A DNA stretch of 64,000 nucleotides from Cellvibrionaceae bacterium (GCA_034112445.1 JAWUVI010000021.1:12815-76814); one strand, 5' to 3'. Numbered from the stretch's first letter, positions 3,621 through 56,200 are shown. Numbers and translations: made by a program. Notes: a model not told the origin generated them from the sequence alone.

Positions 3621-3621
3621 C

Positions 3622-4077
3622 TTAACTGAATTCTTTCAAAACTCGCAGGCTCGCATCAATAATAAATTCTTGGTGATCTTTTTCGAGTTTCAGTCTTTCA
3701 TTATCGAAGGTTAATTTTTTCTTTATAGGTAATGTTTTCCACGCTTCCAAAACAGGGATATGCGCCGTAGCTTCTGCTAACAAATGAAACGGCTTATAAC
3801 TATCTCGATAATGTTCAGCCCCTTCAAGAGAATCTAGTAAGACACTTATTCGAATCGCACCTTCGGTAAAACTTAATTGCTTATCGAGCAATCCTTGGGC
3901 GAGTATTTGTATGCTTTTAATTCTGCGTTGAGTTTGTTCCTGCGCAGCATCATCAATTATCTGCTGCGCTGCAATATTACGCTTTTTAAGCTGTTCAACT
4001 CGATATAAATAATGGGCAGCAACCACACTAAGAACTAAAATAATAACCACTGCCAGCCAAAATAATACTCCCATCAT
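3622..4077 (-). CDS. Small membrane-anchored protein (DUF2489-like), translationally coupled to rmuC
   Basis: 151-aa ORF with an N-terminal TM helix (VLFWLAVVIILVLSVVAA). Its start overlaps the rmuC stop by 4 nt (4074-4077). The family assignment is from memory of the sequence pattern only. Confidence 0.6.
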   Translation of the reverse strand: MMGVLFWLAVVIILVLSVVAAHYLYRVEQLKKRNIAAQQIIDDAAQEQTQRRIKSIQILAQGLLDKQLSFTEGAIRISVLLDSLEGAEHYRDSYKPFHLLAEATAHIPVLEAWKTLPIKKKLTFDNERLKLEKDHQEFIIDASLRVLKEFS

Positions 4078-32200: not shown

Positions 32201-35200
32201 GCTTTAAAGGTAACGGTTTGCACATCGCGCCAGTTGTCTTTAGTGAACTTGAGGGTCACCGAATTGGCAAAAGTTACACCATCATCATCACTGAGCGACA
32301 ACTGGCCATCAGTATCAGCCGTTCCGTCAGCCGCTATGGTAACGAATACATCTTCTGCAGGCTCTTGACTCAACACAACTCGATAGCTGTCTTTATTCAA
32401 CTCAGTAATATCTTCAGCAACTAATGGCGAACCATTGTTTTGACTGATAACAACAGACGCTGAATCTTCATCGATTACTTGTACCACCATACGGCTTAAA
32501 GAAAGCCTATCGTAGTCATCACCATCCTGATCGGTAAGACCTTCCATCACACTGTGACGAATTTCTACTGATTGATTGCCTTCGGCGTAATTATCTTCAA
32601 GCGCTGTCACAGTAATGGTTTGAGCAATAAACCAGTTACTTCTGTCAAATAATAACGTCGTGGCTGTTTCATTACCGTTAAGAGCAACGCCTTTAGCGCC
32701 AGCTTCTTGTTCATCTTCAGTTGGAACAACGGCTGTTGCAGAGATACGTACAACATCTTCTGGCGGTCTAGTTAAGACCACTTCGTAAGTTGTAACACTA
32801 TTTGGATCAACCAATGCAGTGCCGTCTTCATCTTCATAAGCGCGGAGTGACCCCGCGATTGGACGAATCAAGACACCGGCTTCATCGGCATCCATTACAT
32901 TAGCTGAAATCATTGCCTTGATGGCATCTAAACGCTCATCGGTGCTGGTTACAATATTTTCAATCAGGCCGCTATGACCAAGCAAATCATCGGCAACCAC
33001 CGATACAGCATCGCCATCATTACCACCAGCCATTTCAAAGGTGTCACTGCCTAAACCGCCAACTAAATTGAGCTGTACGTTTTCATTCGTGCTGTAAACA
33101 AAGAAAGTATCGTTACCTTCCATGCCATCGATGACCAGTTTTTCGATACCTTCAAAGTTGGTGAAGCGCCCTGCTCCATAAACGCCTGTATCAGTAATAA
33201 CAAAATCATCACCAAATTCAGTACCTAAAATAGTGACTGTATCTAAGCCATCACCACCAGAAATATTAACCGGAGCATTTAAAGCGTAACTGATAAAGTC
33301 AGCGCCCTGACCACCATTAATATTAGTAAACGGTGCTTGAGGATCATCAGGATTAACCAACACGAAACTACGAATTAAGAAGGTATCGTTATCTTCATCA
33401 CCATAGAGTGAAATTTCTTTAGTGTTTCGATAAATAGTGAAACTGTCTTCACCTGTGCCACCGCGCAATGTCGCGGGGAAGCTAATGCCGTTACTGATAA
33501 AACCTTTTGTAACCAACGTTGTATCAAAGATATCTTTTGGTTCAATAGGAGACAAACCAGACAATGCATCACGTGGCGAGTTGAATACCTGACCCACTTG
33601 GAAGTTATCGTTACCAGCATCGCCAAATACGGTTAATGCCGCGCTGGTATCATCGAAAGTAAAGTTGTCATCGCCGTCACGACCATAAACGTTAATGCCA
33701 CCATTGAGATCGCTACCATAGTTGACTCGCTCGATGTCACTTCCAGCAACACGATTACCATTGCTGTCTAATTCCATTTGCATCGCATTAATAGAGTTTG
33801 GACGGAACAGGAAGTCATCGACATCATCGGTGCCAAATACGTTCAAGGTATTTATGGCATCTAAATCACCAGCTGATTGATCATCAATATTAATAATTGA
33901 TGACCCAGAACCCGCCAGGGCAATATTGTAAAAATCTGAGCCCTCTTGACCATATAGGTTCAACACACCACCAATACCATTGAGGAATGTTTGTTGATTA
34001 AACTTGTCAAAGTTCACATTAATAGTGTCATCGTCACCATCACCAGCAAAAACAGAGGCCTGAAGACCTGTTCCTGAGAGATTAAGAGTGTCACCACCAG
34101 AGCCTAACTTAATCGTTGTATTTTCGGCTTTCTGTACAGAAACATGAACTTGATCGGCACCTGATCCTGTATCCAAAACCACTCGATTAAAGGTGTTATT
34201 AGCGATGATATTGACTTCATCGGCACCAAAACCTGAATCGACCGTTAAGTTATCCATAACGGTATCGCTGATGATATTAATTACATCTGCACCGCCACCA
34301 GTGTTAAGCGTAATGTCTAGCCAATCAACACCCTCGGTAATATTAACGGTATCGTCAATGTCATGAATTTGAGTCACCACATCATCAAGCGGATCATCAT
34401 TACCTTGATCGTCTATGTCGTCAGCATTAACATTGAACGTGGCATTCTCAAAACCGCGTAACCACAAGCCACTCCAATCGCTATTTTCAAGCTCAATGGT
34501 ATCGTAGCTAACGTCATAGGCCGTATAGTCAAGGCCATCTGTATCAAGTTTGCGACCTTCTACATAATCATTAGTAACTTTTACATCTACTGTGGTGGTT
34601 TTATTAACCGTGATGGTTTCTGGCAAGTAGAAACCAGCGGTATCTTGGAAGGTCGTAATATCAACACTGTACTCATCGCTCGTGCTATCACCGTTTTTAT
34701 CTAAAATGAGGCCGTCACTCAAGGTTGCCTTAACCGCAACGGAGTTTTGTAATTGCGTCACCCGAATCAATTTGTCGACATTAACTTGAGTGAATTGTGT
34801 TCCGATTCCTGAAGTATCAACACCACTCGGTGCCGCACTGATTAGTGCCGCACGATAAGCCGACCAGTTATCAGCCGTTAGATAGAGCTCTTCAGTTTCA
34901 CCGTATTTAACCCCAAAAGCATCTTTTAGATCCGCGGTATATTCCAGCAAATCTTCAAGCGCCACAGGCGCATTAAAGCGATTAATAGCAACGCCTTCTA
35001 GAGCTGGATCGCCATTGGCTGCCACACCATAGTACGAATAGGTGTAATAACTTGTATTCAATGCCGCCAAGGCATCGGCATAAGCCATTTCCATCGCGAT
35101 GGTATTGCCCTTTGGCGCTTCAATAGAGCTAGACACTGAGGTAGTAGGATCAGCAGTCATTTCGCCTACGGTATAAATAATACTGAGCAGACGCAGTGTG

Positions 35201-38200
35201 TCGCCGGTTAAGTCGTTTTCAGCCAGTTTGCTCGTGACATTCTTATCACCAGCAACCAAGCCAGAATACTTACTTATTTCTTCCGCTGTATGTGTTTTTT
35301 GGAACCACTCATTGGCATCGTCTAATAAGCCTTGATCCCACAGTTCCTGACTGTACTCATAGGTCGCTATGCGTTTAGACAAATCTATATCGCTGCGAGT
35401 GTAAACCGTAAGGTTTGTATCACCGCTCCACGTATAATCATCCTTCAGCTCATTTTTGGCAGAAGCTAAAGTGACGTAATCATAAACACTTTGCATCGCG
35501 TCTTTAACGCTTTGAACGCTAGGTGTACTTTCTATCCAATCACGCAAATCAGTATCGATCATTAAGGCGTTCAAACGATCAATAGAAAAGGCGCCAGACC
35601 CCGTTATTTTTTCACCGCTTGAATCTAGCTGACCAATTAACTCTTGGCCTTTCTTAGCAAAATTCTCAAGATAGATAACAAGAGACTGCTGTGCGTCAGA
35701 TACAGGCGCTAATGCGGTGATTTCTGCACGCAATATGGCAAGAACATCCGATAGTACAAACTCTTCTTCCTGCGTATCTATCTGTAGCGTGATCGTTGCA
35801 TCGCTTAAGCTCGCATCCGATAAGCCATCAAGCATACCGAATTGAGTTTGTTTGTTAGCACGCTCAAGCGCGGCTTGTACGTCAGCGTGATCCACATCAC
35901 TTAATAAGCCAGTGAATTCCAATACAGCATTGCCTTGAGCGTCCAAGACAGGTTGGCCGCTGCTATTAAGTACAGGGGTTCCGGCAGACACAAAATTTCC
36001 TGCGTCATCAAGATACGAAATCAGGCTGATGTCTTGGTTGTATTGATATTCAGCCAAATTGAGATCTATTCGGCCAACGTTTAAATCAGCACCTGCGGCT
36101 TCTTTTATATTAAGGGTTATAGAATCGCTATTACCGGGTCCGCCAGCAAGCCGAACAGTTCCGGCTATACGAGCCAAGTCGTAATTTGCAGGTAATATTT
36201 TGCTAACAGTACGTTGAGTTAAGTCGTCAAAGCGATAAGACGCTTCACCATCCACCTCTAATGAAATGTAGTCTTGCGATACGTTGACCTTGCTATCGTT
36301 CGGTAAAATCGCTTCAGGCTCATAGAACATTGAGATTAAATCACGGAATAAATTACCGCCCTGACCTTCGCTGTGTCTATCTTTTGAAATCCAGTGCTGC
36401 TCTGAAGCTCCACCACCATCAATAGCGCCTAAAGGCACGTTCACCGTGTAAGTACGAGACTCCCAACTGGCATCAAACAACCAGTTCCAGTCCCAGTAAT
36501 ATTCTGTAACAGTCTGAGGATAAGTAATTTGGCCAGTGTTGAGATCATCTACATACAAATCTGGATCATAACCCCATTGATCCTGGCGAGTAGCGTCATA
36601 AATTCCCGTATGAGCGCCACCATTGCCGTTATCAACAGAGTTATAAACTTGATCCGCGTGTATATAACCGCCCCATATACTGTAGGCAACCGCGTAACGC
36701 AGGTACTCATTAAAGAAGGTCTCATCCAAGCTACGAGAACTTCCCGCTTGTAAATCACGGTCTTCATTAATAACCGAACCGGTTAACAATTCATCCCAAT
36801 CACTGCCATTACCGTCGCCAAGATTTTCTAAAGCAACAAGTTGTTCAGCGGTTAATACCGCGCGATCGGGCGCTAGGTTCAACAAGGTTTGATAGGAGAT
36901 ATCATCCGGTAAAGTTGGAGCTGTAGAACCGAGCCCAAAGCCAATTTCGAAATCTTCGCCATTAGCGCCGCTCAAACCGGTCATTAGATTACCCAACATC
37001 GCCTGCTCAAAGGCGTCAACATCATCGCCGTACTGATTCGAGCCATAAAATGCTTCGTTAAGCTCTCTGTATACGTTGGTCGTAGGATCACTAAAATCAA
37101 CTTGATCCCATACCGTAGTGCCTGCAACAGGTGCATCCATTGCCCGTTCAACTGCCTGCGAATAGAGTTTTAATACAACCGACAAGTTGGCTTCGAGCAA
37201 TTTCCAATGGACGGAATCCATTTTCACTGCATCAATATCTTCTTGCTTAGAACTGATCCACTTGGCGAAAAACAAACGGAACAAGTCTTCTTTCTCTTGC
37301 TCCGTTTCTAACGCTCTTTTCTTAAAGATAATCTCGTTGAAATCAAGATCGGCATCACCATCGGTTTGAGTCTCTAAAACTTTCTTTTCAACGGTATAGA
37401 TCGCACTGCTTTCAGGATAGGTGACATCAAAATCAACCTGTTCGCCACCCATGATGACTTCATCATCGCCAGAACCGGTGTTAATCAACAATTCTAGCTC
37501 GGCATTCAAACCGTATAGATAAACTTCATCATCATCACCGCCCGTTAAAATAGCTAAGCGTTCGATATTACTGACACCTTCGATTTTAAGGCCAGCACCG
37601 TAGATAAATTGCTTACCTTCGTTATCGGTAAAGACATAAAACACATCGGCCAATGCCGTACCTGCCAGCACAACCGTATCAAAACCTGAGCCACCATTTA
37701 TCAGTACGCGGTTGTTTTGCACGTAATTCAATAAGACGTCTTTATCAGACTCTTCAATATTATTTTCTGCGTCGCCTGCACCTGCTGTAATGGTACTGCC
37801 GTCGAGCTCCGTGCCATCAGCTTGTAAGTGAGCGCGTAAGAAAAAGGTATCGTCGCCTGACTGACCAAACAATTTGAGTTCACCAATGTTGTGATTGACC
37901 TCAAAGTAGTCATCGCCAGAACCACCAAAGAATTCACCGTTATAGCTGACACCGGCGGTAATACCTTCGGTGCCGTCGACGGCGTCAATAACTCGACCGT
38001 CATCTAGAGTCACTTCGGTGGTTTCAATAACACGACCAATAAGGAAGTTATCAGCGCCTTCGTCACCATAAACAAAGGTAGCGGCCATGCTGTCGTCAGA
38101 AATGATGGTGTCATTACCAGCACCACCATGTATTTCTACGTTTTCAGCGCCACGGTTGTAATACACACGCTGGAATTCATCAGGGCTCGACAATGATATA

Positions 38201-41200
38201 GACGGAGCTGTAGTGGCTGCCGCATCGGCAATATCCATTGGATCACTGATAAATGAATTATCAGCGACAGTAAAGTTCGAGAAATTACCTTTGCTGTCTT
38301 TAGCACCATCAATAATTTCGATACGCCATGGATCACGGTGAGTACCAGCACCAGCTACAGAAACCTCATTGATACCTGGAAGCTTTTCTAGCTCGGTAGT
38401 TAAATAATCGATTCGCGCTTGCTTGCGTAGAATATTTTCAGCTTTAGTAAAGTTAACATCATCGTTCGGGTTTGTAGGCAACGTGAAGACGTGTGAATCG
38501 GTTGTAGCCGAATCATTATCGTCATAACTCAGAGTAAATACTGTGCTTGGATCTGTATGGGTTGAGCGCACATAAAACTGCTGTAAAGCAAACTGTGGCT
38601 TATCAAACATGGCATCCACATCGGGTTTGCCTGCTAGTAACGCATCGGTTAAATCGGCATTTAAGCGCTGTACGTAAGCTCGCGCCACCTTGGCATCAGC
38701 AATAGACTTATCACTACTAAATAATTTGTAGTATTTACCTTCAGAATTAGCGTCAGCATCAATAATATCGATAAGCCAAGCATCATCTTCTGCACCAGTT
38801 CCTGTAACCGTAACGTTACGAATTCCGGCCAGTTTTTCTAATGCTGCTTTAATCGCTGCGGCTGAACTCGAACCGTCCAAAATGTCGGTTGTGGATTCTC
38901 CATGATACTCCAACGTAAATGCATCACTCGCAACATCGCTTGTATAAGTCACTTGCTGACTGGCCGTATCAACATCCATATGCAGGGTATCGGCTTGAAC
39001 CAATCCATTGCCCCCACCCCAGATTTCAACGCTGTCAGTTTCTTCCGTATTCGTGCCGCTATCGCGAACCTCAACGGACGACTCACCAGCAATCGCTCCA
39101 CTTAATGTAATCACATAGGTATCTGAGCCTTGATTACCATCCAAAATGGCTTGCTTAGTGAAATCGTTAATGGCAAAGCTGTTGTTAGACGCACCGCCAT
39201 ATAAGGCAAATTCTTCAAACAGCGCCATAGTGACTTCAGTTTCATCAACAGCTACTTGTCTAGTCTCTAAGTTAATAACGCCGTCTACCTGAACGGGGAA
39301 GATTCGATCTTCTATACCCGTAATGTGCAACGTAGAGTTTGACAGTGAGTAATTGAGATCGCGAATTTCAAGCAAGGTGTCTATATCACCAGAACCTTCT
39401 AACGAGCCATCAATGAAGGTATCGACCCCGGCGCCACCGGTAACCAAATCACTACCGGTACCTGAATCGATAGTGTCACCTAGGTGATTGTCACCTACTG
39501 ACAATTGAGTGCCTACAATTCGGTCATCACCAGCACCGCCGACAAGGGTTAGGTTATCGACAACATGGGCGGTAATTATTTCATGAGATTCAATTGCGGT
39601 GATGTCTTCAGGCAGGAAGCCAGCAATAATAATATCATTACCACCTATAACTGGATCACCATTTGAATCTACCGCATTGGTATTGGCATCACCTTTGATA
39701 GTGACATTATCGCGATTACCTGTAATGGGTGCATTCTCGGACATATCATCGGCATTACCATCAAGGTCAATGCCACGAACAATAATGCTTAGATTACGAT
39801 TTTCAGCGATACCGTTTTCATCGATACGATGATGATCTACTTGTAGAACGTCAGTATAAATTGTCTGCGCATCAGTACCGGCACCAGTGACTAAATGGCC
39901 GACAGTGAACGAATCATCTTCAGCGTTTGAACCGGCAATGGTTATGCTATCAACCGCATCATCATTGACATAGGTTGGGTCTAAGAACCAATCGGTTTCT
40001 CCGGTTTTTTGTAACACAGCACCATCAACTGGCTCATTACCTTCTACCCGAACACCATCTTTGTAGTAGGCCCAAACGTCTTTTTCTTTCATCCGTGGGC
40101 CAAGTTCTTCAACGGTCTGATAGGCTGAAATATAGACATCGGCCGACGCATCTGACTGTGCTGTGGTCAATACAGCGAGCTGCGGATTGCTGTCAGAAAT
40201 TGTTTGTAATACCCAACTGCCACTTTCATTGAGTTTCTCAATGGTGTGGAAGGTAGTAACGGTATTTTGTTTCACAGCTTCAAAATCAGAAAAACTGTAT
40301 TGCGCGGTTAATGTTTTAGCTGAATCAAAACTGCCTATAACAAACGCCCAAGGCTCTAAAACAGTGCCTTTACCTTGGACCTCAATAGTTCCGACAGAAG
40401 GGAAAGCGGTAGATAATTGCGATAACAAAGAGGCTTTAACGGCATCTACTTCTGCTTGTGTTGCTGAACTGGATAACCAAGTAAAGTTAATCGCTGCAAC
40501 AGCTGAACCATCGTATGAGAAACCCGCTGAACTGACGCCAAAAGGAATATTAATCGATGCCGATGTACTGCTGTCTGCAGTCGCTTCGGCCACTTGTGGA
40601 TCAAGATCAAAATTAATCGCTAATAATAAATTGCCCATGATTGCGCTAACAATTTTAAATTGTCCGTTTTCATAGGTCACTGCAGCGTCACTTAAAGGTG
40701 ATGAAGAACTCAACAAGCTCTGTAAAGCCACCGCTTTAGCTTCATTTGTGGTCACATCCGTAGTCGCTGAACCAAAGCTGACGCCTAAATCAACTGGGTG
40801 TGACGGATCAATGTTTAGGGTTGTGCCATCAATTATAAATTCAGGTGGTAAAAATTGAGTGGTTATTTCGGTAACGGTATTAAGACTGACTGTTTCACGC
40901 ATTTCTTGAACAGCAACAACATTCGCAAAACTGTGTAATGCGCCTGCACCTGTGCGATCTGCTTCAACAAACGCGACAGACCAAGCAACAGACCAAGGGT
41001 CTTCAGCAGTCACTTGTCTGGCTACTTGTACATTCGTAATACCGTTAAGAGCCTCTAACGCCGCCTCTACTTCTGCGGCGGTCATGTCGGCTTTAATTAA
41101 CGCTTTTTCACCGTTGTAAGAGAAGTATGCACTCGATTGCCACGCTTCCAAACCAATGATTCGCTCAGCCACATCGGCCGTTCGAGTTTCATGTTTTTTA

Positions 41201-44200
41201 CCATGAGTTAACACCGCCGCTGATGAAGCCGCATTTAACTGCAGATATTCACCATTAACATTATCAGCCGAGACCAACGTAACTAACCAGTTACCGGCAA
41301 CTCCGGTAACTTTAACCTGATCAATACCGGTTAAGGATTCCAATGCTTCGGTAATAGAAATCGAGGAACCACTAAAGTTGATATCGACACCTTGGCCGCC
41401 ATACCAAACGGTTTGCGTATCACTGATACTTAATGTTTGAAGGCTATTGTCAATAACATTTCTATTGACAGATACAGTGCGATCGACTGCCTCTAACTCA
41501 GCAAAGAAAAACTTACTAAAGGTATCTTCGGGGTTAGCAATTGGAGTTAACGTAATTGCCCAGTCTGTTTTAAGCGGGTTATCGCCGTTTTCTGATTTCA
41601 CCACCGCAACGTTAGCGTTACTTAACGATTCAAATGCTTCTAGAGCCGCGACTAGTTCAGCGGCTGTCATAGAATCCGTTAGGGTGAGCGAATCATCGCC
41701 ATACCAAAGTTGAGTTTCGTCTGCGGTTAATACGGTAATGGTTTGCGCTGGATCACCATCAACTGGATCACCATCAACTACATCAGCCTGCAACCTAGAT
41801 TTCTGAGCCTTAAGGACAGAGACAGACAATGTAGAAGGCGTGGCTTCATGGAAGGTTATTTCCCAAGGATCAGCCGCTAAGGTAGGTATAACAACACTGA
41901 CATTGCCTAACAAGCTTGCAATGGCACTGGCACGTTGCTCCTTAGACAAACCGACAGCATTAACTGAACCAACGGCAACTCCACCATAACTAAACGCTAA
42001 TTCAGCCGCATCAGCAGGCCAAACGAAGCCTTGTCTCATTAAATTACTTTGGCTTTCAATACTGGCTAGAGTGTCAGTAAGGGTATAGATGACAGTCGTA
42101 TCTACAGATGTTCCACCGTTAACAAATTCAATCACCTCGGCCGCATTCGTAAACACAAATTCCCAAGGTGACTCTTCCGTACCATCACCCGTTACGGTAA
42201 CTGAATTGCCTGAAGCGGCGAGGATAATATTGAGTTGTGCTTGGATATTGATTGGGGATTTTGAACCGCCCAATTCATCGATCGCAAAGCCCTGATCGCC
42301 ATACCAAATAATGCCATTGGTTTCAAAACTCGCTAACGCCAGCAGTTGAATTTTGTTATCAACGAATTCATCCGCATTGACTGTATTTTCAACCAATAAA
42401 GGCTCACCAGAAGCGTCATACAAATACTCAGCGGTCTGGCTGTCTAATCGATAAAACACGTTATTTGAGCGAGTGTCATTATTTTGCAACAAGCTACCCG
42501 TATGGGCTTGCACACTGTATTCATAACCCAATAACTTAGTGACGGCTGATGTGAAAGTAATTACCCAAGGATTGGTTTCTGAGCCTGTGGTACCGGCTGC
42601 AACAGAGACTTGGCTCGCATCAATACTGGCCATAGTTGCCAGTGCAACTTCAATTTCAGTTGCCGACATGCCTTTACTGATTGTTACGCTGTCAGCCGTT
42701 GAATTAGAACCCAAATATAAAGTGACTTGATCTAAGCCATCATCAATCCACAGTGTTTGCTCTGTTTTATCATTAGCAAGACTGGTGTCTTCGGCTGTTT
42801 TAGCTTTGGTAATTAATTCAGGTGAACCATCATCATTAAACTTATAGGTGCCGCCTTCTTCTAGATCGTAACGGTAGAAATAACTACTGCGTTGATAACC
42901 ATCTATTAAGGTTTCTGGCTCAGTTGGAACCAAGATGGGGAAGCCGTTGGAGTCAGTGACAACAATGGTTTCACCATTGACGTCTAACACTAAAGTTCCC
43001 GCGTCATCGCGCAACAGTTTTGGTTCTTTTTGTAATAGTGAAGCGTAATTCGCAGGGTACACTTGGTGGTTACCCTCAGAGTCACGCTCTATTTGATACA
43101 TGGTAGCCTGCTCGTTACCAAGCTGAACATCCACTGACAGTAAGCTGGTATCAAGCAGATCATCAACGGTGATTGTGTCTTCACCGCCTTTCGCGTCGAG
43201 CATAATGTTTTCAACATTAAGGTCTAAGCTGTCGCCATTAATTGTTAGTGTCGCGAAGTTTGGCAAACCAGAACCGATGGCCCTGCCGCTGTCGGTTATA
43301 TTAATCGTACTGTCAGAATCATCGGTGGTGGCTTTTAAGGTGTCTACACCTGCCCCGCCATCAACTTCTAGTAACGCGTTAGGATCAGTTATATCCGCGT
43401 ATTCCCAAACGATAAGATCATCACCCGCATCACCATAGGCACGAACAGCCCCAGTACCAGCGTAAATTGAGTCATTACCTGTACCGCCGTAAATTACATT
43501 ACCACCATCAGAGGTTATAGAGCTGTCACGTGGATCACCGCCATACAGTTGATCCCAACCACCATCGCCATAAATAACGTCACTGCCAGCACCGCCATAA
43601 ATAACGTCGCCATGGAAAGATCGAATAATGACGGCCACGCCACCAATATCATACGGTGTCGCTGAGTAATCACCCGATTCGTTAACGATGAATGAGGAAC
43701 TGGCCACATCGTAATAATGAGTACCGTTACCTTCGTCGGTTATGTATTCACCGGTATCCGTATCAAGTTTAAAATCGCCTACTTTGGCAATGCGGAAAAT
43801 ACCTAAGTCATTATCAAACAAGAAAGGTCCATTCGCTTGATTTGCAAAGACAGAAGGAAAACCAAACTCGTTATAGCCCAGTAAACTGTTGGCTGTACCG
43901 TCACCAAAGCGCTCACCATCTGGCTGGTATATTTCTGCATTGCGCAACACACCATTCACATCAACGTAAACGGCTGCCACTTCGTCTCCACCGCGAATGA
44001 CATCATCGCCTGCGTAGGTTGCTATAACATCAAAACCTGTGCCGCCCTGAACAATGTCATCGCCAAAACCACCAAAGATAGTATCGTCGCCTGAACCACC
44101 GTCAAGAGTCATGGAGCCTGGGCTTGGAACAGAGGAGTTACCGCCATAAGCTGCATTCTGGCCGGTTACTTTCAAGGTGTCCTTACCGGCATCACCAGTC

Positions 44201-47200
44201 AGTAAATAAACGCCTGATTGAGACAACAACATGCTATCTACGTTGATTCGATCGTCTCCAGCGCCACCGATAATGGTGATTTTATCTAACGTGCCATCAT
44301 TTTCAGTATCGGCAAATATATCGACAATATCGGAACCAGCACCGGCATTAATCGTAATGGTATCGACTCGTCCATTGAGTTTACTTAACTTGTAGCGATC
44401 AAAAGCTGCTGCATCAGGATCGCTACCATCATGGTCTGTGCCGTTTATAACAACATGGTTAATTTGTGAGGCCAAGAAGAATTCTGCACGTAGGCCGGTA
44501 CTGACAACAATCACCTCATCATCAAGACTGCGCCAATTAGCCAGCATGTCACGTAGGGCTACTTCTTCATCTCGGGTATAAAATTCAGTATTGATATAAC
44601 CGTTTTCTGACATTTTCTGCAGGGTTAAATCACCATCGATAGGCAAGACTTCTACTGTATAGTTTTGTGCGCCATCGGAATCATCTCCGTAATAATCAAG
44701 TACTAGAGTGTCACCATTGGTGTGCTGTCTTTTACCGTCGGTTATAACAGGGGCAACTGGGTTACCACTAGAGTCTAGGCTTGTGACGTAGGCAATATCT
44801 CGCGCCGCATCGTGAATACACTCCCATGAGAACTCAGCAATAATTTCTTCAACAAAACGGTCTTTGGCTTCAAACAAGGTAATGGTGCTGAAGCCCATGT
44901 CGATTCCGATCCATAAGAAGGCTTCTACAAAAACGGCTAACTGACCTTCCACATCAAACAAACACTGTGGTCCGTGAGTGATGCGCTCTACCAACTCAGA
45001 TCCGTAGAGCTTGCCATCACCAATAGGCAAGTCATTTTGGAAAGCGGTTTCCATATCGTTCAAATCAAAACCGATAACCGCTTCAATACCACCTTTAACA
45101 CCGGCTTCAACAATACCGCCTATACCTAATGAAGCTTTGGCGTAAATTTCTGCTTTAATGGTGGCTTCAAAGGCATCGACATCGGTATTTTCTATACCGT
45201 GATCATCCAAATAGAAACCATTAAATACGCGCCAGCTTTCGGCCATATCAAAACCGGTATCCATCCATTCGCTGATACCACGAGTATCAAAGCCGAAATC
45301 GAAGTTGGTGTAAGCACCAATGGCTCCACCTAAACCAAGGTTTAAACCTGGGTAGACCATAAAGGTTTTTTCATAACCAAACTCTAATTCTAGGTCTGGC
45401 AAGTCGTACCAGAACAGATCCACTTCGCCTTTACCCAAGACGAAATTGAGTACGCTCATTGGGTCTTCAAGTACCGGAATACGGAACTTTTTGGGCCCAG
45501 CCGTAGCGTTTAATCCACCGCCAGCAATGGCATCTGAAGTGCTTGAATCTGCTGAAGATTGAGGATTACTGGTTGCCGTCTCTTGCGCACTGCTTTCATC
45601 CACTTGTTGGTTTGATCCACTTAACGCACCGCCAGTTAAGTTAAAGCTACCAAAGTTGATGCCGCCACTCATGTCTTCGACACTGTCTAAAAAGTCGATG
45701 GTATCGGCTATGGCATTCAATACCTTTTTGGCTGTATCAACGACTGAGGCTGGCAATTTCAAATAAGCAATGTCGATAAATTGCAGCTTGGTGATGCCTA
45801 GATCAATTTCCATGGTTAAAAGATCAACCAGTGGTTTCAATGGCGTTACAATATCGGAGATAACACCGAAGGTGTCTCCAAGGAAGCTGTCAAAAACAGA
45901 ACCAATATCAAGAGTTAAGTCATGCAGGATTACTTCAGGGCTGCCAAGCTCAAAGCTGGCGCCTTCGCCAAGTACAAAACTCGCGGTAAGTTCTTGTGAA
46001 TATTCAAGAATGGTGTGTATTGAAGGCAATATATCACCAACCGAAGTGGCAACTTGTGCGTATAAGTTAGCTTTAGCTTCAGCATTGGCATTTAAAGAAA
46101 CACCAATATCAGAAAGAATATCCCCTGCAGCTAAACGCCCGCCATCACCACCGGTTATGTCTACGCCAAGATGACCCCAAAGACCGGTTTCACCGTCATT
46201 GGTAATATTGGTTGCTTCGCCATTCAACATTTCACCGTTGGTTATATCCATGGCTAAGAAGCCAAGAGTACCGGTAGCTTTGCTGTTCTGTGCCAACTCA
46301 GCTTTAACATCGAGAGCAATCTCTTCACCGGCGGTATTAATACCACTGGTGTCTAAGAAAACACCCATTTCGATGCCATTGTCACTGACGTTACCAATGC
46401 CTAAGCCAAAGCCCATTAGGTAGTCCATCAGCACTTCAATTTCAGAGTCAACTTCTAAGTTGATGCCCGGAATACCAACACTGAAATCAATGGGTATACC
46501 AACTTCTTCTATTATTGTGTCACGGCTGTAGTAGGTTTCATTCACATCATGGGTATAGCTGATGGCATAAGCGCCTTCCGGTGAAAGGGTGTAATAGGTC
46601 TGCCCCCTCTCTTCAAGACTTACTGCAACATCATTTATTTCGGTATAGGTATAATCACCAACCAATAAGCCACCGAATTTCAAGTTAAACGTTATTAAAC
46701 CGGTATCGCTGAAGATCAGTTCAATATCATCGGGACTGGTGGGTACACGGGTAATTAATTTACCAAATTCGTCAAATTGTTCCGCGCCATATTCATCATA
46801 AATAGGCACAACAAACGAGAAGAGCTTGCTGTTAATACCATTTAAGCCTTCAAATAAAGCTTCGCGAATTTCGTCTAGAATCCCTTCAATAACACCTTCG
46901 TTAGCGGCATCTTGGGCTTGTAACCAACCGCCAAGGCTATCGGTAACATAATCACCCGAAGCATCAAGTTCGCCTAACACACCGGCTTTTATGCTTCTTA
47001 ATGTATCGGCTAAATCATCAAACGCATCGCCGCCAATTAATGGCAGCTCTATTTCACCGATACCATCAGCAACGTAATCAATACCACTGAAGAAACCCTC
47101 GATTCCACCCAGTAATAATGCAGGATCATCAAGAAATCCGATTAAAGCAGCCAAAACCGTGGCGTTATCAAAGGCAAACTCTGGGATAGAGTAATCGTAA

Positions 47201-50200
47201 CCAGCCGTAAACTCGCCCGTTAAAGGATTAACGGTAAAACCGGCGCTGGCTCCTAACACATTATCGGCATAGCCATTGCCATCAAGGTCTTCAATTGAAC
47301 CACCGAGAGGCATAGATTCGATGGGGAAATACAATGGTAATTCTAATTCTGCCGTACCGTAGGCTTCTGCTTCAAAGCTATCCACGATTTCATGCAGTTC
47401 TAAATAGCCAACGTGACCATCTGCGTCAGGGGCTGATGCATCAAAGGCACCGAATCCAGCACTAAAGCCTAACTCAAGACCGGCATGGCCGTCCTTACCA
47501 ATCATCCCTAGAACCAAATCTAAGGAATCCGGAATCCCAACGATTCCCAAAGCACCGGCTGTGCCACCAAGATCAATGCCAACCGTTAAATCAATATCTT
47601 CGGCCGTGGCACTTAATAACACCTCAAAACCGGAATTTTCATCGATGTAAAAAATCGGGTCTAATACATTACTGAGATCAAAACCAAAACCTAAGTTCAA
47701 GCCCATTTCGGCCAGAAGATCTATGGTCGCGTCAGAAGTAATTGACAGGACTTCAGTTAAATCATCAATAGGTAGATCCCACTGATCGAGACCTAAGTCG
47801 TCGATACTGAAATCCAGGTCAAAGCTGTGTTCATAGATGGTGTTGATATTAAAATCGACATCAAGAACCGAATTAGCGTACTCGGCTGTGATTAACTCAA
47901 TATCACTGGCCAGGTCAAATAAGGTACGTAACTCTTCATTTAAAAAGTCGACCATTTCATAGAGGTTGTCGGAAGCTCCACGAGCCGCATCCAAAATAGT
48001 CTGGATACCTTCGCCAACACCTGTGGCACCTTCACCAAGCAAGTCTTCAACACTTTTACCTACAAGCGGAATGTCTTGATAAAGAAGTCCAGTTTGTACG
48101 TACCATTCACCGGTAACCGCTTGATAAGCACCTTCTAGTTCTGATGCTGACAAGGCGATAAGTTCAGACTCGAAAATTTCTAAGCTTAAATCGATGCCTC
48201 CATCTGGACGAGAAGCTTTAAGCTCTTGCGCCCAATACTCAGTGCCGTCAAGCATTGTCCATAACTTGAGAGTAATACTTCCTTCTGCTGTACGTACAGA
48301 TTTAACAACCTGCTTACCAAGAGCGTCAATTGTTGGGGTATAATTCGCAGGGGTTATTACAACACCTTCAGAGTCAAGAACTTCGGCTACGAAATCAATG
48401 GCGGGAATCGCGCTTACGGACCAAATCTCTTTTTGGAGGTTGGCTAGCTCAGTGCCTATAGCAAGGTACTCTTCGCCCATAACTTCATTAAGAAGGTTAT
48501 CGAGCATATCGAGAATATTGTCGAGAGACAGTAATCCCATGTTTTTAAGATCGAAAATATCTTGCGGGAAAATGATGTCATAATCGGTTTCAAAGGTACC
48601 CGACTCATAGGCAAAACCAGCACCTAGGTGCATTAGATTATCAGCGTAACCATCCGCATTTAAGTCTTCAGAAGAACCACCCGCTGGGTTAGTTTCAGTT
48701 GGGAAGAACAAGGGCATATCAAAACTGGCGTCGCCAGCCAGAGTTATATCTAAGGCATCGGTCCCTAATTCGCTCAGTTCTACAAGAGAATAACGACCAG
48801 CATCGGTATCAACCAAGTTAGCGCCGGCTTGAAGACCAATAGAGCCTTCACCGTCAACGCCCCACAAGCCAATTTCTTGACCGAATATGCCTATAGTCGC
48901 TTGTGCACCAAGATCTACACCGGCGGCTGTAGCGGTAAAATCAATACCTGAATCATCACCCAAATAGGCGTAGTTTAATGGGTTAACCGGACCTCGGGCT
49001 GCGAATCCAGCTTGGCCAAACTCTTTAACATCGAAATCAAGATTGAAATTAAAATCCAGTGCGGCATCTAACAATAGAGTACCGGAGGTACCGAACACCA
49101 CATCGATCATATCGAGAGGTAATCCTAGTAATTCCCCTATTTCCACTTCGGTTAGAGCAACATCGAAATCTAACTCGTAGAGAAAATCCCAATCGAAATC
49201 CCAGTCAAACCCAAGATTCCAACCGTCAAAGACTAAATCAATATCAATCACAGGCGGAGTGATGCCGAGACTGCCGAACAACGTATTCAACTCTAGCTCT
49301 AGCCAGTCAGCCAATTCAGGCAAAGAGGAGAAACTGGTACGAATGTCGCCAATGAGGCTAGAGAAAAAGTCACTGATGCCATCAAATTCAGGCACCATTA
49401 ATCCACCCACCTCTATTTTGGGCATTAAAGAACTAAAGATTCCGTCTAAGCTGACATTGAAGCCTGGTATCTCAAACCCTAAAACATCGATATCACCTAA
49501 AACATCAAACGCGCCTTGCAACATGGCCAATAAATCATCGAGTGATAGATTAGACAGATCAAACAGCTTCGAGAGATCCGGCATATCAAATTGCAGATCG
49601 CTAAAGAAATCGCCTATATCACCAACAGAAACACTCGGGAAACTAGGTGTACCAAAACTAGGGACATCTGGGAAACCAGGTGCACTAAGACTCGGGAGAC
49701 CAGGAAAATTAGGGGTGCTGATGGATATAGTTGGCAATGGCGGCAAGCCGCCTAAATCTGGAATACCGCCCAAATCTTCAACGGTTGGCAATGAAAGATC
49801 CATACCGCCAACTTGAATGGCTAGCGGCAAGTCAGCTTTAAAACCACTGCCTTTGCTCATGGATATAGCTAATTGATTATCCAGCAGTGCTGTACCTGCG
49901 GCCTCATCATAATCGGCGTGAACCGAATCGAAGGCATTTACAACACCATCAAGATCAGAAAGAGTCAGATCACCACTATTGCCAAGACGCAGCTGCGCCA
50001 ACATTTCTAACGAACCATCAACCACTTCGCCTTTAATAAGGCCGAAGTCTACGGTTACATCAATATCATCTTCACTGATTCGAGATTCGAAATTAATGCC
50101 TGCATCGCGAACGTAAAACTCACCCGCTTCATCGTTAGGACCAACGCCAAAGGCAAAATCAAAGCTGAGGTTATTTGTCAGCCTAGGCTGAAAATCAACA

Positions 50201-53200
50201 CTGACACCGGGAATATTACTGAGAGCACTACCCAGATCAAGACCAACAGCGTCTAGTTCTTCAAACAAATTGACGTTAACGCCAAATTCTAACAAGCGGT
50301 TATTAAGGGTGATATTTAAGATATTACGGTCGGTAACGCTGGCAGTTTCATTTAGAACTAAGTTGCCATCAGCGTCGGCCACAATAGTGTTTCCGTTCAC
50401 CAAAAAGTCGCCAGTGCTCTCATCCTTAGAGATATTAATAATTACTGTTTCAAGTCCGCTTTGTGTTCCCGATAAATAAGCAGCGACATAACGGAAAGAA
50501 ACTTCTTGGCTTTCACCGTTCGCTAAATCTGGAAAATCAGTCGCTGGGTCAATTGAATAGCTGTATGTGCCATCGTCATTGAATACCAATGTGCCCGTAT
50601 TCGGCCCTTCTAGACCATCAAATAAGCTGTAAGAGTTGGGAGCTATCGTATCTAAGAGAGCGAATAATTCATCACTGGTAACTACTTGATCAGCTGGAAG
50701 CACTTCTAAAGCTTTTGCGTCAAAGAACGCCTGTAGCGGGGTGATAATTTGATCTTGAATGGCCGCGCTAATAATACTGGAAAAATCAACCGTACCGCTT
50801 TGCTCGATTGCATCACCATTGGCATCAAAACCAGTGGTTATTTTTTCGTAAAGTTCGCCGAAAGTGGCGTCCATGATTGGCACAGGCGTATCTAATAGTT
50901 CGTCCCAATCGGTGTAATTATCGGCAATTAAATCCACCCATTCTTTGAGTTTTTCAAGGCCGTCAATTAATGAGGTTTGAGCCACTGTATCAATAGTGAT
51001 ATTGGCTTGCTCTTGGGTATTTGCAGATTGGCCTTCAACGAATTTTTCTACATTGAAATCAGTGGTGACCGTATTAGCGCCACTAGTAACCGTTATATCA
51101 CGGGTTATCGCTGTCGCTAGATCTATTGCTGTGCCATCGCCACGGCCCATGTTGTAGGCTAAATCTGTGGTTACTTGTGAAAAGTCTAGGGTGTCAGTAT
51201 CCGCATCACCGGCGGTAATTGTGTCACCACCCCAGTCGTCAGCAAAAATAAAGGTATCATCACCTGCACCACCCGATAATGTGTCGTCACCGGCACCGCC
51301 TGCGATGATATTTGCCGCGCTATCGCCCGTTAATGTGTCATTTCCAGCACTGCCTATCAGGTTTTCAATGCCGGTTAATGTAGCAATACCATTAGCGGGA
51401 ACATCGTTATCAACTGCTGTACCAGTACCAACAGCACCTTGTGACAAGTCAGCATTGACATTAACATTTTCGATGTTGGCAAAGCTGACTGTATCAATAC
51501 CATCACCACCAACGATTACATCGCGCAAATCAGCGCCCGCAGTCCAGGAACCTAGTTTAAATAGGTTGTCTTCATCGCTTCCTGTAATAGTATCTACAGC
51601 TGAAGTAGAGACTGAACCAAAGACATTTTGAATATGGGCAACACTGGTGAAGCCAGTGGCGGTTTGAGTTTCTTTATTACTTAAATCGACGGTTATATTC
51701 GAGGTATAACCTGCAGAGAAATAATCCAGGGTATTGGTGCCCTCACCTGCATCAGCCGTTCCACTAAAGTCTCCACCATCTTCAACAGTAAAAGTATCGT
51801 CACCTGAACCACTGGTTAAAACCCAAGTACCCGAATTGGTACCAGACACAGTTATTGTGTTGTTCACAGACGCTGGTGCCGTTGAAGCTAAGGCGCTCGG
51901 GGTAACATCCGCATTAACAGTTAAACTGTTAGAGGAAAAAGTAAACGACAAATCAGAGCTTGCCGCTGACAAATCAAGCGTGTTTGTACCAGCCGTATCG
52001 GTGATAGTGTCAGCTTGTCCTGTTGGAGAAGCTGCCAACTCAATAGGAGACAAACGATCTGACCAAGTGTCGTCGACTATATAAGTATCGTTATCTCCTT
52101 CTCCTTTGAGCGTGTCATTACCTTTACCACCATCAAGAATATCGTTACCTGCACCACCGCTAATCGTATCGTTGCCTTCACCACCCAGCAGTTTATCAAT
52201 GCCAGCACCGCCTACTATGGTGTCATTAGCACCGCTGCCATCTATAACGTTCGCATTATCATCACCCGTTAAGGTATCTTCGAACTGCGTACCGATCAGA
52301 TTATCAACATTAGTTACTGTTCCTGTAACACTGGTAGTTGTTCCAACAACAAGACTGGATAAATCGACGATTACACCAGAGTCGTCACCTTTATCGTACT
52401 GACTGTAATCCAGTGTGGCTGAACCCGTCCCGCCATCAATATCACCAGCAAACTCAACATCACCAACAAAAACAAATTGATTTTCGCCGCTGCCGCCGAT
52501 TAGTTTTTCTACATTGGTCGCAATAACCGACTGTGTGACTATTTCAGTAAGCGTAAGTGTTTCGGTTCTGTAGACAGGCGTTGTTGTATCGTCTTCCGGT
52601 ATATAAAATTCCGCACCAATTGTGCCGTTGGTCAAGCCAATGCGGACCAATTCTGTAATCGTAACTTCTTGCGTGGTGGAAACGGTAACCTGAATATTGT
52701 TAGTTGGGTCGCCATTCTCGTCCAACTCTTTTTCAATGCTAAACACCAAATCAGATGTGACAGCGCTAAAGTCTAAAGTACCTTTTTTACCGGTAGCCGT
52801 AGCAGAATCATCAAGCAGAAGTTCTGTCTCAGAATCCCCCCCCCACTGGTTTTTAAAGACGTAACTATTGTTACCTTCACCGCCTTTAATCAATTCAATA
52901 TTTTCTAATGAACCGGAACCGACATAAACGCTGCTAGCCGAATCGGCAGCAACCAAAGAGCCTGAGTCGAAAGTCATGGTTAAATCGGTGGTTACCGCAT
53001 CAACCTGTGCAATGCCTAGGGTTCCATCAGAAGCCGTAACGGCCTCTATACCCGCAAAACTGATGGTATCTTCACCACCTTCAATACCTTCAATAACCCC
53101 ACGCACAGTCAAATGAGCGCCATTGGTTAAACCTTTGGCCGCTGTTACGATGAGATCCGCACCACCACTGACGGTGTTTTCTCCTTCTGTAACAACCAAA

Positions 53201-56200
53201 CCACTGGCTGCTTGAGCCGTGAAAGTTAAATTAATGGTTTGCTGAGTACCATCGGATAAGTTGAGAACGATGCTATGAGAAATATTTTCAGCAACTGTAT
53301 CAAGCTGCGCTTCATCGCCAACCACAAAATGGTAACTTCCGTCTGCATTGACAACAATATAATCTTGGCCGCCCCAACTGTAGCTCTCCCCTAAAGGAAA
53401 TGAGCCACTATTGCCAATTGCAGAAACTTTAACGCCTTCATTTAATGTAAATTGACCATTCAACACTAAGCCCGCCGCTTTAGTGTCAACACTCACAGTA
53501 CCGGAATTAACCGTAATTTCACCGTTAACCAGTGTTACTGTTTTGGTCAGTGTTTCTTCTGTACCCAGCTCGTTTTGAACGGTTACTGTGAACTCATCAG
53601 TAAAGGTTTTACCTATAGCTTGTGTGGCAGCACCAACAGCTGGCTTGTATGCATAACCGCCATCTGTATTGACAGTTAACGTGGCACCACTGGTTAATGT
53701 AATCGGTGACCCACTGGTAATGGCGGCATCGTTAATTTTAGCAACGCTAAAGGTATCTATATCTTGGCCCCAATCACCCGAAAATAGATAAAGATCATCA
53801 CCATGGCTGCCAACAAGACCATCAGCTCCTGCACCGCCGAGTAAAATGTCATCTCCCGTACCGCCAAAGATCAAATCGTTATCAGCACCGCCGTCTATGT
53901 AGTCGTTATCGTCTCCGCCATAAATAGAGTCCGCACCTGCCCCACCACTGATGTGATCAGCTCCGGCTTGGCCTTCGATAATATCGCCTTGGGTAACATC
54001 AGATTCATCACCACCAACAATGGTGTCCATACCGGCACCAGCAATAATAAGGTCTGCTGATGAACCTCCAGTTAGAGTGTCATCATCAATATCACCAAAT
54101 AATTGAGTCTCAATACCGTCAGCAGCAGTGAACGTATCATCTTTATATGTGCCAACTAAGAGGTTAATGCCGGTAACGTTTCCACCAAATCCTAAAACAC
54201 CAGCCGCTGTTGCACCGGTTTTCAAATCAACGGTTAAGCCTGTTCCTGCAATTACAGTGTGTGCTGAACTAGGGCTGGAAGCACCTTCAGTAGCCGTTGA
54301 GTCAACAGTTAGAACACCTTCCGCTGAACGACTAATAACAAAATCTAGGCTATGAACTGTTGGTGTAATGTCATCGCCTGCAGCATTGGCAACTGAATAT
54401 GACACAGATAAATTTGTAGACGCGCCATTGGCTAGGTTTTTAAAGTCTTTATCTAGGTTAACGAGATACTCATAACTACCATTAGCTGCCAGCTCAACTT
54501 CACCGAACCCAGTAACAGGGTTTGATGTGAGAACGTAATTAACCGCATTAGTTACGGATAATTGACCCGATACGACAGCTGGGATTGTGACCGCTGCTTC
54601 GTAAGCCAAAGTTTGAACATTACCGGTGAGCTCGCCGGCTGTGGAATTTAGATATCCGCTTATGCTTCCATCTTTTTCCACAAAATATGAATTATTACCT
54701 GCACCACCAATAATGTTGTCCACTTTCTCGAAAGAAGCGCGGCGAACTTTATCATCCGTGCCAATAGTGGAGACAATTACGGTTCCGTCTTCTTTAATAG
54801 TGAATTTTAGATCGGTTGTAACTTGACTGAAATCGAGGGTTACGGTCGAAGACTCGCCATTCTCAATCAGTAACGTATTGAGCCAATTATTTTGAAAGGC
54901 ATAAGTGTTAACCGCACTACCACCAACCAGTTTCTCTATATTAGTGATGCCACTGATACTATCAGTACCAACTGTTGCACCAACTCCTGTAGAACCAATG
55001 GTAAACAAAACATCCGAGCTGGTGTAGGTGAAATCTATAGAATCTAAAGAGCCGTCGGCTGAGCCTTCATTAATAACGGTGCCATTCCAACCCGTGCCGC
55101 TGAAAACATAAGCATCGTCGCCTTTGCCGCCGGTTAAGTTATCACTACCGGTTGAGCTGTAAAGAACGTCTGAGCCGTCGCCACCTAAAACAGTATCATG
55201 GCCTTCACCACCAAAGAGCAAATCGTCTCCACTACCGCCTTCTAGAGTATCTGCGCCGCCTTGGCCCCATATTTCATCATCGCCTGCACCGCCTATCAAG
55301 GTATCAGCCACCGAACCATCAGCTCCGATTAATGTATCGTTACCCTGACCACCATCAACCGTTAACTGGGATGTTGTGGTATTGGAGATATAATCATCAC
55401 TAGAGCTGCCTTGTACGAGGTTGTCACTGAATATTAAGCCTTCACCTTCGGCAGCGCCTAGATCAATATAATTAAATGTGAAACCTTCAAAGTTAACCCA
55501 ACTGTCATCTGAATTCTGCGCTGAAAGAGCATCGTATAATTCATCAGCTTGAGCTGTAGAGGTGTTATTAACGACTACAGCACCTTCAAAGTTAGCGGCG
55601 TAACTGAGATTAAAGCTGGTGGTATTACTGTTGGTACCCGCTGCCGCTTTAAGCGAACCAGATAAACTACCCGCGCCACTGAAGATCACATTATTATCAG
55701 ATCCTTTACCCAAAATAACGTCGGAAACACCTTCCGCAAAAATAACGTACTCGCCGCTGGATAGATGAATCGTTACCTTAACTTCGCCGTCACCATGTAT
55801 ATCAACATCGACAACACCGGTAACACTGGATAGATCAAGTAAATTACTGCTTTGCGAACCGTCAAACTGAAGACTTATAGAGCCCGCTTCTGTAATGGTA
55901 CCGATAACATAGGTACTCGAGGAAAGGCCCGACGAAGGTACTTTAATGCTCTCAATATTAGAGCCACTGATATTAAAGGTAAGGTCTTTTTGTACAAAAC
56001 TGGTGATTTTATTAGTGACCGTTAAGGTCTGCTCTGGCGCATCAACAAACAAAATGCCTTCATCGTTAATGTCTATTTCAACTTGATTTAGGTCTACTCC
56101 ACCTTTTATACCATTTGCTTGAATTTTGGTTTCTACTTTTTCTTTCCAAAGCTGCATAATGACTTCAGTTAGCTTTTCATTACTGACGACTTTGGCAATA

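Follow-up and report, generated by a model that had tools for sequence, protein, structure and literature searches.

A conserved non-repeat module in giant DUF4347/RTX exoproteins encoded beside SecA-like/M50-HlyD export loci

Introduction

Giant exoproteins of the RTX type make up about 1% of some bacterial genomes and have been regarded almost wholly as arrays of repeats whose function is unknown. In known RTX proteins, the place ahead of the RTX repeats is typically taken by a functional domain. Two described systems come closest to the protein studied here. The first is a secondary SecA_DEAD locus with M50-HlyD, GAF-HlyD and TolC genes, which has been described by comparative genomics (Kamneva, Poudel & Ward 2015, PMC4452313). 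The second is represented by the Chlorochromatium giants Cag_663 and Cag_665, for which an N-terminal extended or laminated beta-sheet with a hydrophobic cleft and no structural match has been predicted (bioRxiv 10.64898/2026.03.19.712371). Here we report the analysis of a 64,000-nucleotide stretch of DNA from a Cellvibrionaceae bacterium (GCA_034112445.1 JAWUVI010000021.1:12815-76814; hereafter the window), which encodes on its minus strand (23242..59097) a giant DUF4347/RTX protein of 11,951 amino acids (aa), and in particular of a long non-repeat module lying at aa ~2917-5040 of this protein.

The giant protein has in common with the cargo of the SecA_DEAD/M50-HlyD loci (LEPR-XLL/DUF4347 giants) the same locus genes, the DUF4347 domain, the RTX repeats and the co-occurrence of module and exporter, and it differs in that the module is found only in a minority of the exporter-bearing genomes. 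The section of PMC4452313 that deals with the locus describes the export genes only and mentions neither their cargo nor the module. The likeness to Cag_663 and Cag_665, which begin with a LEPRxLL leader, comprises the giant size, an adjacent TolC gene, Ca2+-binding repetitive parts and a predicted non-repeat sheet with a continuous hydrophobic surface; the Cag regions, in contrast, are N-terminal and reach up to 13,000 aa, and the C-terminal parts of those proteins are parallel beta-helices and not RTX rolls. This likeness between the module and the Cag sheets, drawn from the description of those proteins, is an analogy only. No description of the module was found in the literature on DUF4347, LEPR-XLL and giant SecA/M50/HlyD proteins. 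The module appears to be undescribed and to have no detectable fold relative; the class of its host protein and the export locus are already known from comparative genomics.

Results

The module is a colinear, non-RTX part of the giant protein

The gene of the giant protein is 35.9 kb long within a 2.99-Mb assembly, which holds a single copy of the module, and residue i of the product begins at window position 59097-3(i-1). A preliminary description of this DNA had flagged residues 2933-4761 as a central stretch free of GGxGxD repeats. We found neither GGxGxD nor looser RTX motifs in aa 2933-4761, compared with 3-8 per 500 aa in the flanks, and all the peptides that had been quoted from the stretch are present in the translation, including GFDWDFDWDFLYELDFDV (aa ~3293), LDFNFNLDFDV (~3345) and GLNLGFGFDL (~3799) and, towards the C-terminal end, GLNLGLGGAIGAYTNFDFGFD (~4584), ASLGIGGIVEAGVKGGIEAVIGFDL (~4655) and LAVFVEAFLWIGIDMGF (~4720). 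The boundaries, instead, had been drawn too narrowly: according to colinear homolog alignments the conserved unit begins at aa ~2917 and extends ~280 aa beyond the earlier end, to aa ~5040 (window 43978-50349, minus strand, as for all the parts described below).

A word-indexed search restricted to the region identified 13 giant homologs of 5,600-7,400 aa, mostly combining DUF4347 with RTX repeats and in some cases carrying matrixin or LysM. These 13 proteins gave one long colinear alignment over window residues ~3,640-5,040, with 30-47% identity over ~1,370 aa, and a second one that places residues ~2,920-3,500 onto the stretch immediately upstream in the homolog, whereas the RTX regions gave just short, scattered, non-colinear repeat matches. 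Giants from Gammaproteobacteria, Burkholderiales, Planctomycetota, Verrucomicrobiota and other groups are colinear with the whole module and share 30-79% identity with it.

The distribution of the family was assessed by an exhaustive phmmer search with aa 3562-4761 as query against 1.84 billion cluster representatives. This search returned 694 protein clusters at E ≤ 1e-3, 134 of them at E ≤ 1e-30, the recurrent match being the C-terminal ~560 aa (aa ~4196-4761), whose first half corresponds to the part that we name subdomain C. A genome scan yielded 116 module-encoding stretches from several phyla, comprising Gammaproteobacteria (Amphritea, Psychromonas, Pseudomaricurvus, Simiduia, Thiomicrorhabdus, Chromatiaceae), Burkholderiales, Planctomycetota (Stieleria, Rubripirellula, Ca. 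Kuenenia), Verrucomicrobiota, Lentisphaeria and Desulfuromonadales; the nearest relatives belong to marine Gammaproteobacteria of the Cellvibrionaceae type. Pfam gave nothing in aa 2933-4761 of the window protein nor in 12 family members, NCBIfam had no match to the module, and the PDB was matched neither by single sequence nor convincingly by profile (best E 2.6).

Subdomains C and D, to which the C-terminal ~560 aa correspond, also form the N-terminal, non-RTX part of an RTX protein of ordinary size. This protein of 1,592 aa (P0141; L082:10001-14779) is encoded complete on a 25.6-kb metagenome contig and consists of a leader-like start (LEVRRVLS), subdomains C and D and then RTX repeats; its gene has housekeeping genes as neighbours, and the surrounding 10 kb are free of exporter genes. 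P0141 may represent the most compact setting in which the module occurs naturally and, as the core heads a protein of ordinary size, the fold would be independent of the giant context.

Predicted structure of the module

Two AlphaFold2 (AF2) models were generated, one for aa 4190-4775 from 12 sequences, with a predicted local distance difference test (pLDDT) value of 60.7, and one for aa 3660-4775 from a 49-sequence alignment taken from genome loci, with a mean pLDDT of 76.0 and 818 of the 1,116 residues at 70 or above. Both runs gave the same secondary structure, namely serial subdomains, three of them in the larger model, in which a long meander of antiparallel strands (13-24 residues each) is followed by helices. 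The models thus depict neither disorder nor a beta-solenoid continuing the flanking RTX rolls. With the RTX beta-roll (PF00353) the module shares the same protein, an acidic, Ca2+-related composition and a short RTX block at its end; it differs by the absence of GGxGxD in aa 2933-4761, the PF00353 match of the aa 2501-5000 tile falling only upstream of this stretch, and by its long antiparallel strands with helices between them, which are not those of a parallel beta-roll.

The larger model opens, from aa 3660, in the segment between two related units, with ~20 residues of low-confidence coil and short strands, followed by helices at aa ~3683-3727 that belong mostly to unit B. This unit (47158..48021, aa 3693-3980) is a meander of antiparallel strands of 18, 24, 20, 21 and 16 residues (E85-102, E125-148, E164-183, E203-223 and E249-264 in AF2 model numbering, used also for the elements below) and leads into a ~100-aa helical connector (46699..47157, aa 3981-4133; H320-330, H333-355, H365-382, H396-406 and H411-427), which carries a conserved LPLIG motif and has a mean top-residue conservation of 0.43-0.57. 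Subdomain C (45628..46698, aa 4134-4490) comprises strands of 19, 18 and 16 residues (E559-577, E673-690, E701-716) and then two helices of ~24 residues (H746-769, H791-815). It is interrupted by a Tyr/Thr-rich insertion of ~54 aa, TYTEINDVAVSLEERGQTYYTLSPEGAYAISYTHDVNETYYSRDTIIEEV (aa 4145-4198, window 46504-46665), which is lineage-specific, with a column occupancy of 0.21 (absent from most homologs) and lower pLDDT. A low-complexity linker rich in Ser, Thr and Gln (45487..45627, aa 4491-4537), variable in length and sequence between homologs and with pLDDT below 60 in both models, connects it to subdomain D (44803..45486, aa 4538-4765), in which strands of 13, 13, 15, 17, 20 and 21 residues are predicted (among them E986-1000, E1004-1020, E1055-1074 and E1079-1099). 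The module ends with a beta-rich tail (43978..44802, aa 4766-5040), covered by colinear alignments up to aa 5031-5060 and closed by a short RTX block at aa ~4965-5040; an RTX-like alignment to CyaA covers only this tail stretch.

With medium confidence, the fold is predicted to be alpha+beta and built of very long amphipathic hairpins, in which one strand face would be almost purely aliphatic and the other acidic and Gly-rich. Hydrophobic faces of the window protein such as LISAILAMLLFF, VLAAAALAV, AIAIAALI and FVGLVVALII oppose acidic or Gly-rich ones, and the pattern is conserved: across 48 homologs, the columns of the hydrophobic face are 80% hydrophobic and 5% charged, those of the opposite face 25% hydrophobic and 31% charged. 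The amphipathic alternation that had been noticed in the last ~350 aa of the flagged stretch is real, but it spans the whole modelled region, aa 3660-4775. With a grand average of hydropathy (GRAVY) of +0.20, the region is more hydrophobic than the complete protein (-0.10), and it is at the same time strongly acidic (321 Asp and Glu, 58 Lys and Arg).

Searching both models against the PDB with Foldseek gave no match at E ≤ 1e-3. Among the top non-significant rows there were barrels, pore-state MACPF and gasdermin chains and lipid-binding sheets (LBP/BPI, ApoB100, vitellogenin), all with a template modelling (TM) score ≤ 0.2; for the barrel and pore-form rows E was ≥ 0.013 and the probability ≤ 0.33, the best being BamA (E 0.026, TM 0.08) and the pleurotolysin pore (E 0.013, TM 0.04). 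Such rows are what long hairpins would attract by chance. One row from the BFVD database with E 7e-4 was discarded as a relative (probability 0.08, TM 0.06), the other BFVD rows being non-significant. The beta-barrel-like or pore-forming character that the preliminary description had proposed was thus not borne out, and a canonical beta-barrel is unsupported because Pfam, NCBIfam, PDB sequences and Foldseek all gave nothing significant.

Subdomain D and its cysteine pair

Subdomain D is the most conserved piece of the module. Its mean top-residue frequency per 30-aa block is 0.62-0.76 over aa 4560-4765, except for one block at 0.57 that contains a variable loop (aa ~4680-4709), whereas the blocks that precede aa 4530 reach 0.25-0.59, and as little as 0.08-0.18 within the lineage-specific insertion. 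This conservation peak is exactly the Gly-rich stretch that had been singled out earlier. At least 40 positions are invariant or near-invariant, and the conserved motifs include DLFxYDxP, PGLN, FGFDTxG, NGFYLDD, SLGIGGLVEAGVxGGIEA, DGK, CLFD and FLEAFxWxG.

The whole giant protein contains five cysteines (275, 4712, 4760, 11824 and 11852), two of which, C4712 (window 44962-44964) and C4760 (44818-44820), are located in subdomain D, in keeping with the two Cys residues reported for the C-terminal part of the flagged stretch. We followed this pair across 146 distinct family members: both cysteines are present in 135 and neither in 9, the first alone occurs in 2 and the second alone in none. Because the two residues covary, which is the signature of a disulfide, the data imply that C4712 and C4760 form a disulfide, and that the module would fold in an oxidising, extracytoplasmic compartment. 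Two other roles for the conserved cysteines were considered and rejected. A thioester domain was suggested by the resemblance of CLFD and LEAFLW to the Cys and Gln motifs of such domains, but the position in question is occupied by Glu, Asp, Asn, Ser or Arg, with no conserved Gln, and the second Cys covaries with the first. A Hint/BIL autoprocessing domain is at odds with a Cys spacing of just 48 aa and gave no profile match.

Duplicated units and calcium-loop motifs

Upstream of the helical connector, the module of the window protein consists of a lead and two related units. The N-terminal lead (49381..50349, aa 2917-3239) follows the last N-terminal RTX block and is colinear with the stretch directly upstream of the single unit found in homologs (P0006, at 32% identity and E 9e-64, as well as P0013, L070, L074 and L080). 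It contains a Pro-rich patch of micro-repeats, GLPSLSAPGFPDVPSFGTPSFPSVS (aa ~3101-3159, window 49620-49795), which falls where several homologs fail to align (gaps at aa ~3053-3157 in L033, L069 and L078). Unit A (48418..49380, aa 3240-3560) is the first copy of the duplicated unit, and in a homolog that has just one unit the alignment runs without a break across the lead and unit A. The inter-unit segment (48022..48417, aa 3561-3692) is part of the duplicated period of ~460 aa and is confined to the window protein and the three relatives closest to it, L001 (Ca. Pelagadaptatus), L018 (Simiduia) and L031 (a Cellvibrionaceae metagenome-assembled genome).

In a pairwise BLASTP comparison, residues 3240-3517 of unit A and 3693-3977 of unit B align with 30% identity (E 6e-23); self-BLAST of the whole region against the giant protein showed no internal repeat, so that the duplication is visible only on direct unit-to-unit comparison. 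Two paralogous units of ~460 aa had been proposed previously, and while they are real and follow a period of 459 aa, their alignable core is ~300 aa long. Among the 11,951 residues there are exactly two DxDxDGxxD motifs, at aa 3478 in unit A and at aa 3937 in unit B, within the loops EDLNADGYADN (aa 3477-3487, window 48637-48669) and EDLDGNGYADN (aa 3936-3946, window 47260-47292), 3-5 nt away from the coordinates first given for them. Two units with two loops are present only in the window protein and the same three relatives, whereas 44 other loci have exactly one loop; the homologs have the architecture lead, one unit and remainder (~1,550 aa), the window protein lead, units A and B and remainder (~2,140 aa). 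The ~460-aa unit bearing the DxDxDG loop has thus been tandemly duplicated in the lineage of the window.

A generic form of the loop motif, Dx[DN]x[DN]Gx[AGS][DE]N, was found in 47 of 80 related loci. The family-wide consensus is P[LA]GG[ST]xxDx[DN]x[DN]Gx[AG]DN, and that of the 49-sequence alignment DLPLYFPxxxxPLGGTxxDxNGDGxADNVLH, in which P, G, D and L are invariant. With its D-x-[DN]-x-[DN]-G core and a downstream acidic ligand, the loop of the units has the generic features of a candidate calcium-binding loop of the DxDxDG type. The earlier claim that the loops resemble thrombospondin type-3 (TSP3) or EF-hand calcium sites holds insofar as the motif, D-x-(D/N)-x-(D/N)-G-x-(A/G)-D-N preceded by P[LA]GG[ST], is kept throughout the family, but it is not accompanied by any TSP3, EF-hand or FG-GAP match in Pfam. 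Unlike an EF-hand, the loop is not part of a predicted helix-loop-helix: the AF2 model puts it in a coil segment bounded by strands E249-264 and E288-298, and its position 12 is Leu or His, not Glu. TSP3 and FG-GAP domains differ by their tandem arrays, the module having one loop per ~460 aa, and neither gave a Pfam match at E ≤ 1 in the window protein or in 12 family members.

Further loops of this kind, with the canonical form DxNxDGK(L/V)xxxE, are found in the C and D subdomains of many distant homologs. An hhalign comparison of unit B with subdomain C gave a probability of 80% (E 1.4e-5), which suggests that the two are distant repeats of one another; a fourth repeat was not supported by hhalign, the probability being 18% for unit B against subdomain D and 5% for C against D.

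Linkage to the export locus

The giant gene of the window is flanked by exporter genes, with a TolC-like OEP gene upstream and, downstream, genes for a GAF-HlyD protein, an M50-like/HlyD fusion, a truncated SecA-like ATPase and an HlyD adaptor. Elsewhere in the same genome, outside the window (G000:C35:35352-36722), lies a further M50-HlyD fusion gene, a distant paralog of this one (25% identity, E 2e-42).

Homologs of the M50-HlyD fusion were detected in 35 of 36 module-bearing genomes of diverse lineages, in the proteobacterial cases mostly at a distance of ~30 kb or less. We also sampled evenly 201 genomes from the order of the window, of which 7 have the module and 56 the M50-HlyD fusion. 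All 7 carriers, whose module-encoding open reading frames span 3,875-11,959 aa, are exporter-positive (Fisher p 9.8e-5), and 49 of the 56 exporter-positive genomes have no module. The module is a shared non-repeat core in a subset of the giant leader/DUF4347/RTX exoproteins encoded beside SecA-like/M50-HlyD/TolC export loci: it travels with the export system, but the exporter does not need it, which argues for an optional payload domain and not for a secretion or retention element.

Other features of the host protein

The DUF4347 domain is located near the N-terminus (PF14252 at aa 150-339, E 4.9e-49), and RTX nonapeptide repeats are recognised by Pfam from aa ~500 to 2,800 and then again near the C-terminus. 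Ahead of DUF4347, the LEPR-XLL leader model NF012209 scored 13.1 bits, below its cutoff of 17, at aa 43-63 (window 58909-58971), where an EARNLLSADL motif is found. At the opposite end, a short run of hydrophobic residues leading into basic ones (AEAILGVISLAAMRRGW, aa ~11890-11906, window 23380-23430) is preceded by an acidic, Pro/Glu-rich segment containing Cys 11824 and 11852; this end looks more like a membrane-anchor or sorting-signal-like element than like a classical type I secretion system signal.

Downstream of the module, a second family-conserved block (aa 6968-7233, window 37399-38196) has 41-45% identity in every giant homolog. The homolog segment matching this block also matches aa ~8450-8691 (window 33025-33750) at ~31%, so that a domain of ~265 aa is duplicated in the window protein. 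Another conserved piece of ~200 aa lies at aa ~6508-6707 (window ~38976-39575). No Pfam match was obtained for any of these three blocks.

Discussion

We tentatively interpret the conserved, autonomous, non-RTX module at aa ~2917-5040 as a unit stabilised by calcium and a disulfide, which would serve as a payload or contact module by means of a sheet with an apolar face; judging from sequence and predicted structure, we would give this interpretation a probability of roughly 45%. The chain would leave the cell unfolded and then fold outside the cytoplasm, where Ca2+ bound at the DxDxDG and EF-like loops would stabilise the fold together with the C4712-C4760 disulfide. The resulting elongated sheet would bury its continuous apolar face by packing its own helices onto it, by pairing with another copy or by contact with lipid or some other hydrophobic surface. 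Its role would be that of a payload or contact domain, through which the fibre associates with a surface, a membrane or itself, and it would be neither a spacer nor needed for export. A functional, non-spacer role, which the preliminary description had put forward as plausible, is well supported because the module is folded and not a solenoid, is the best-conserved colinear part of the protein and keeps its loop motif throughout the family.

Several points weigh against this interpretation. The predicted template modelling score (pTM) of the AF2 model of aa 3660-4775 was only 0.51. Calcium binding is putative, being proposed from motif resemblance, and the window protein itself has degenerate forms of the EF-like loops of subdomains C and D (DITGGDGGRL and LPIGDGKLYGSE). 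A weak step is the apolar face as a working surface, because a sheet hydrophobic on one side would be equally expected from the core of an ordinary beta-sandwich. Finally, the count of 49 exporter-positive genomes lacking the module may be inflated by weaker M50-HlyD matches (24-27% identity) belonging to other subfamilies.

The sandwich alternative is central to another explanation, in which the module would be a rigid stalk, a rod stiffened by Ca2+ that extends the fibre, conserved through folding constraints, with its apolar faces buried in a two-layer sandwich and with neither a specific binding function nor an activity on membranes. The rest of the protein being a long repeat array, the amphipathic pattern suiting a sandwich core, the elongated strands suggesting a rod and the lack of any catalytic-looking motif or family in Pfam and NCBIfam are all compatible with a stalk. 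However, giant adhesins usually build their stalks from short repeats in tandem, whose number and sequence vary, whereas the module is single-copy, non-periodic and ~1,500 aa long, is colinear across phyla with its invariant and near-invariant positions concentrated in subdomain D, and stands alone before the RTX repeats in P0141. We therefore regard a mere stalk as unlikely, if still worth considering.

On a par with the stalk, and hence also doubtful, is the idea that the module represents a novel lipid- or membrane-engaging sheet domain. Here the predicted elongated sheet and its helices, locked by Ca2+ and the disulfide, would form an aliphatic groove that binds or extracts lipids or seats the fibre on a membrane. 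This membrane would be either the outer membrane of the cell itself or that of a contacted cell. The likeness to the hydrophobic troughs of TULIP/BPI-like or bridge-like lipid-transfer proteins, and to the cleft-bearing sheets predicted for the Chlorochromatium giants, would be functional, the fold being unrelated. If true, beta-sheet domains that engage lipids or membranes would gain a new class.

Loops of the DxDxDG type are often located at the ligand-binding sites of integrin-like and lectin domains, and their presence in the units would suit a specific adhesin head, which would recognise a particular glycan or protein of the prey, host or substratum through its loops or its conserved acidic/Gly-rich face, in a Ca2+-dependent way. 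The optional occurrence of the module among exporter cargo and its non-RTX position in the small protein P0141 point in the same direction. Ligand-binding heads, though, usually diverge fast, while the module is conserved across phyla of very different habitats, and no lectin or adhesin family was matched in Pfam or NCBIfam, so that we consider a dedicated adhesin head improbable.

Marginally less probable still is membrane insertion, in which the long amphipathic hairpins, probably contributed by the subunits of an oligomer, would build a transmembrane beta-barrel in a target membrane, as those of beta-pore-forming toxins do. Its sole positive support is amphipathicity, that is, hairpin strands of 13-24 residues with one aliphatic face, to which the raised GRAVY of the region and the presence of pore-state pleurotolysin, MAC, perforin-2 and gasdermin chains among the top non-significant Foldseek rows could be added. 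The scores of these rows indicate no fold relationship, toxin families are matched neither in Pfam nor among PDB sequences, the region is extremely acidic, and AF2 packs the hairpins with decent confidence into compact alpha+beta subdomains instead of leaving them unpacked.

Least probable of all is an export or retention element, a plug, ratchet or anchor engaging the TolC-like channel or the M50-HlyD/SecA-like machinery in the manner of the N-terminal retention module of LapA-type proteins, for although module and exporter co-occur and are physically linked (35/36 and 7/7 genomes), the module lies in the N-proximal conserved part and a disulfide could lock a plug, most exporter-positive genomes (49/56) do without it, P0141 carries it with no exporter gene in the surrounding 10 kb, and in the window protein it starts only after ~2,900 aa, which include long RTX arrays.

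We thus favour, at the probability given above, a payload or contact module. For a family of at least 694 protein clusters, a non-repeat core of ~1,500 aa now has boundaries, a fold prediction of medium confidence, candidate calcium-loop motifs and a covarying Cys pair. Pieces of 230-630 aa are tractable for expression and structure determination and provide a basis for a new domain family, and P0141 may serve as a convenient expression target. The module offers a handle on the part that the cargo of the uncharacterised SecA-like/M50-HlyD exporter plays at the cell surface.

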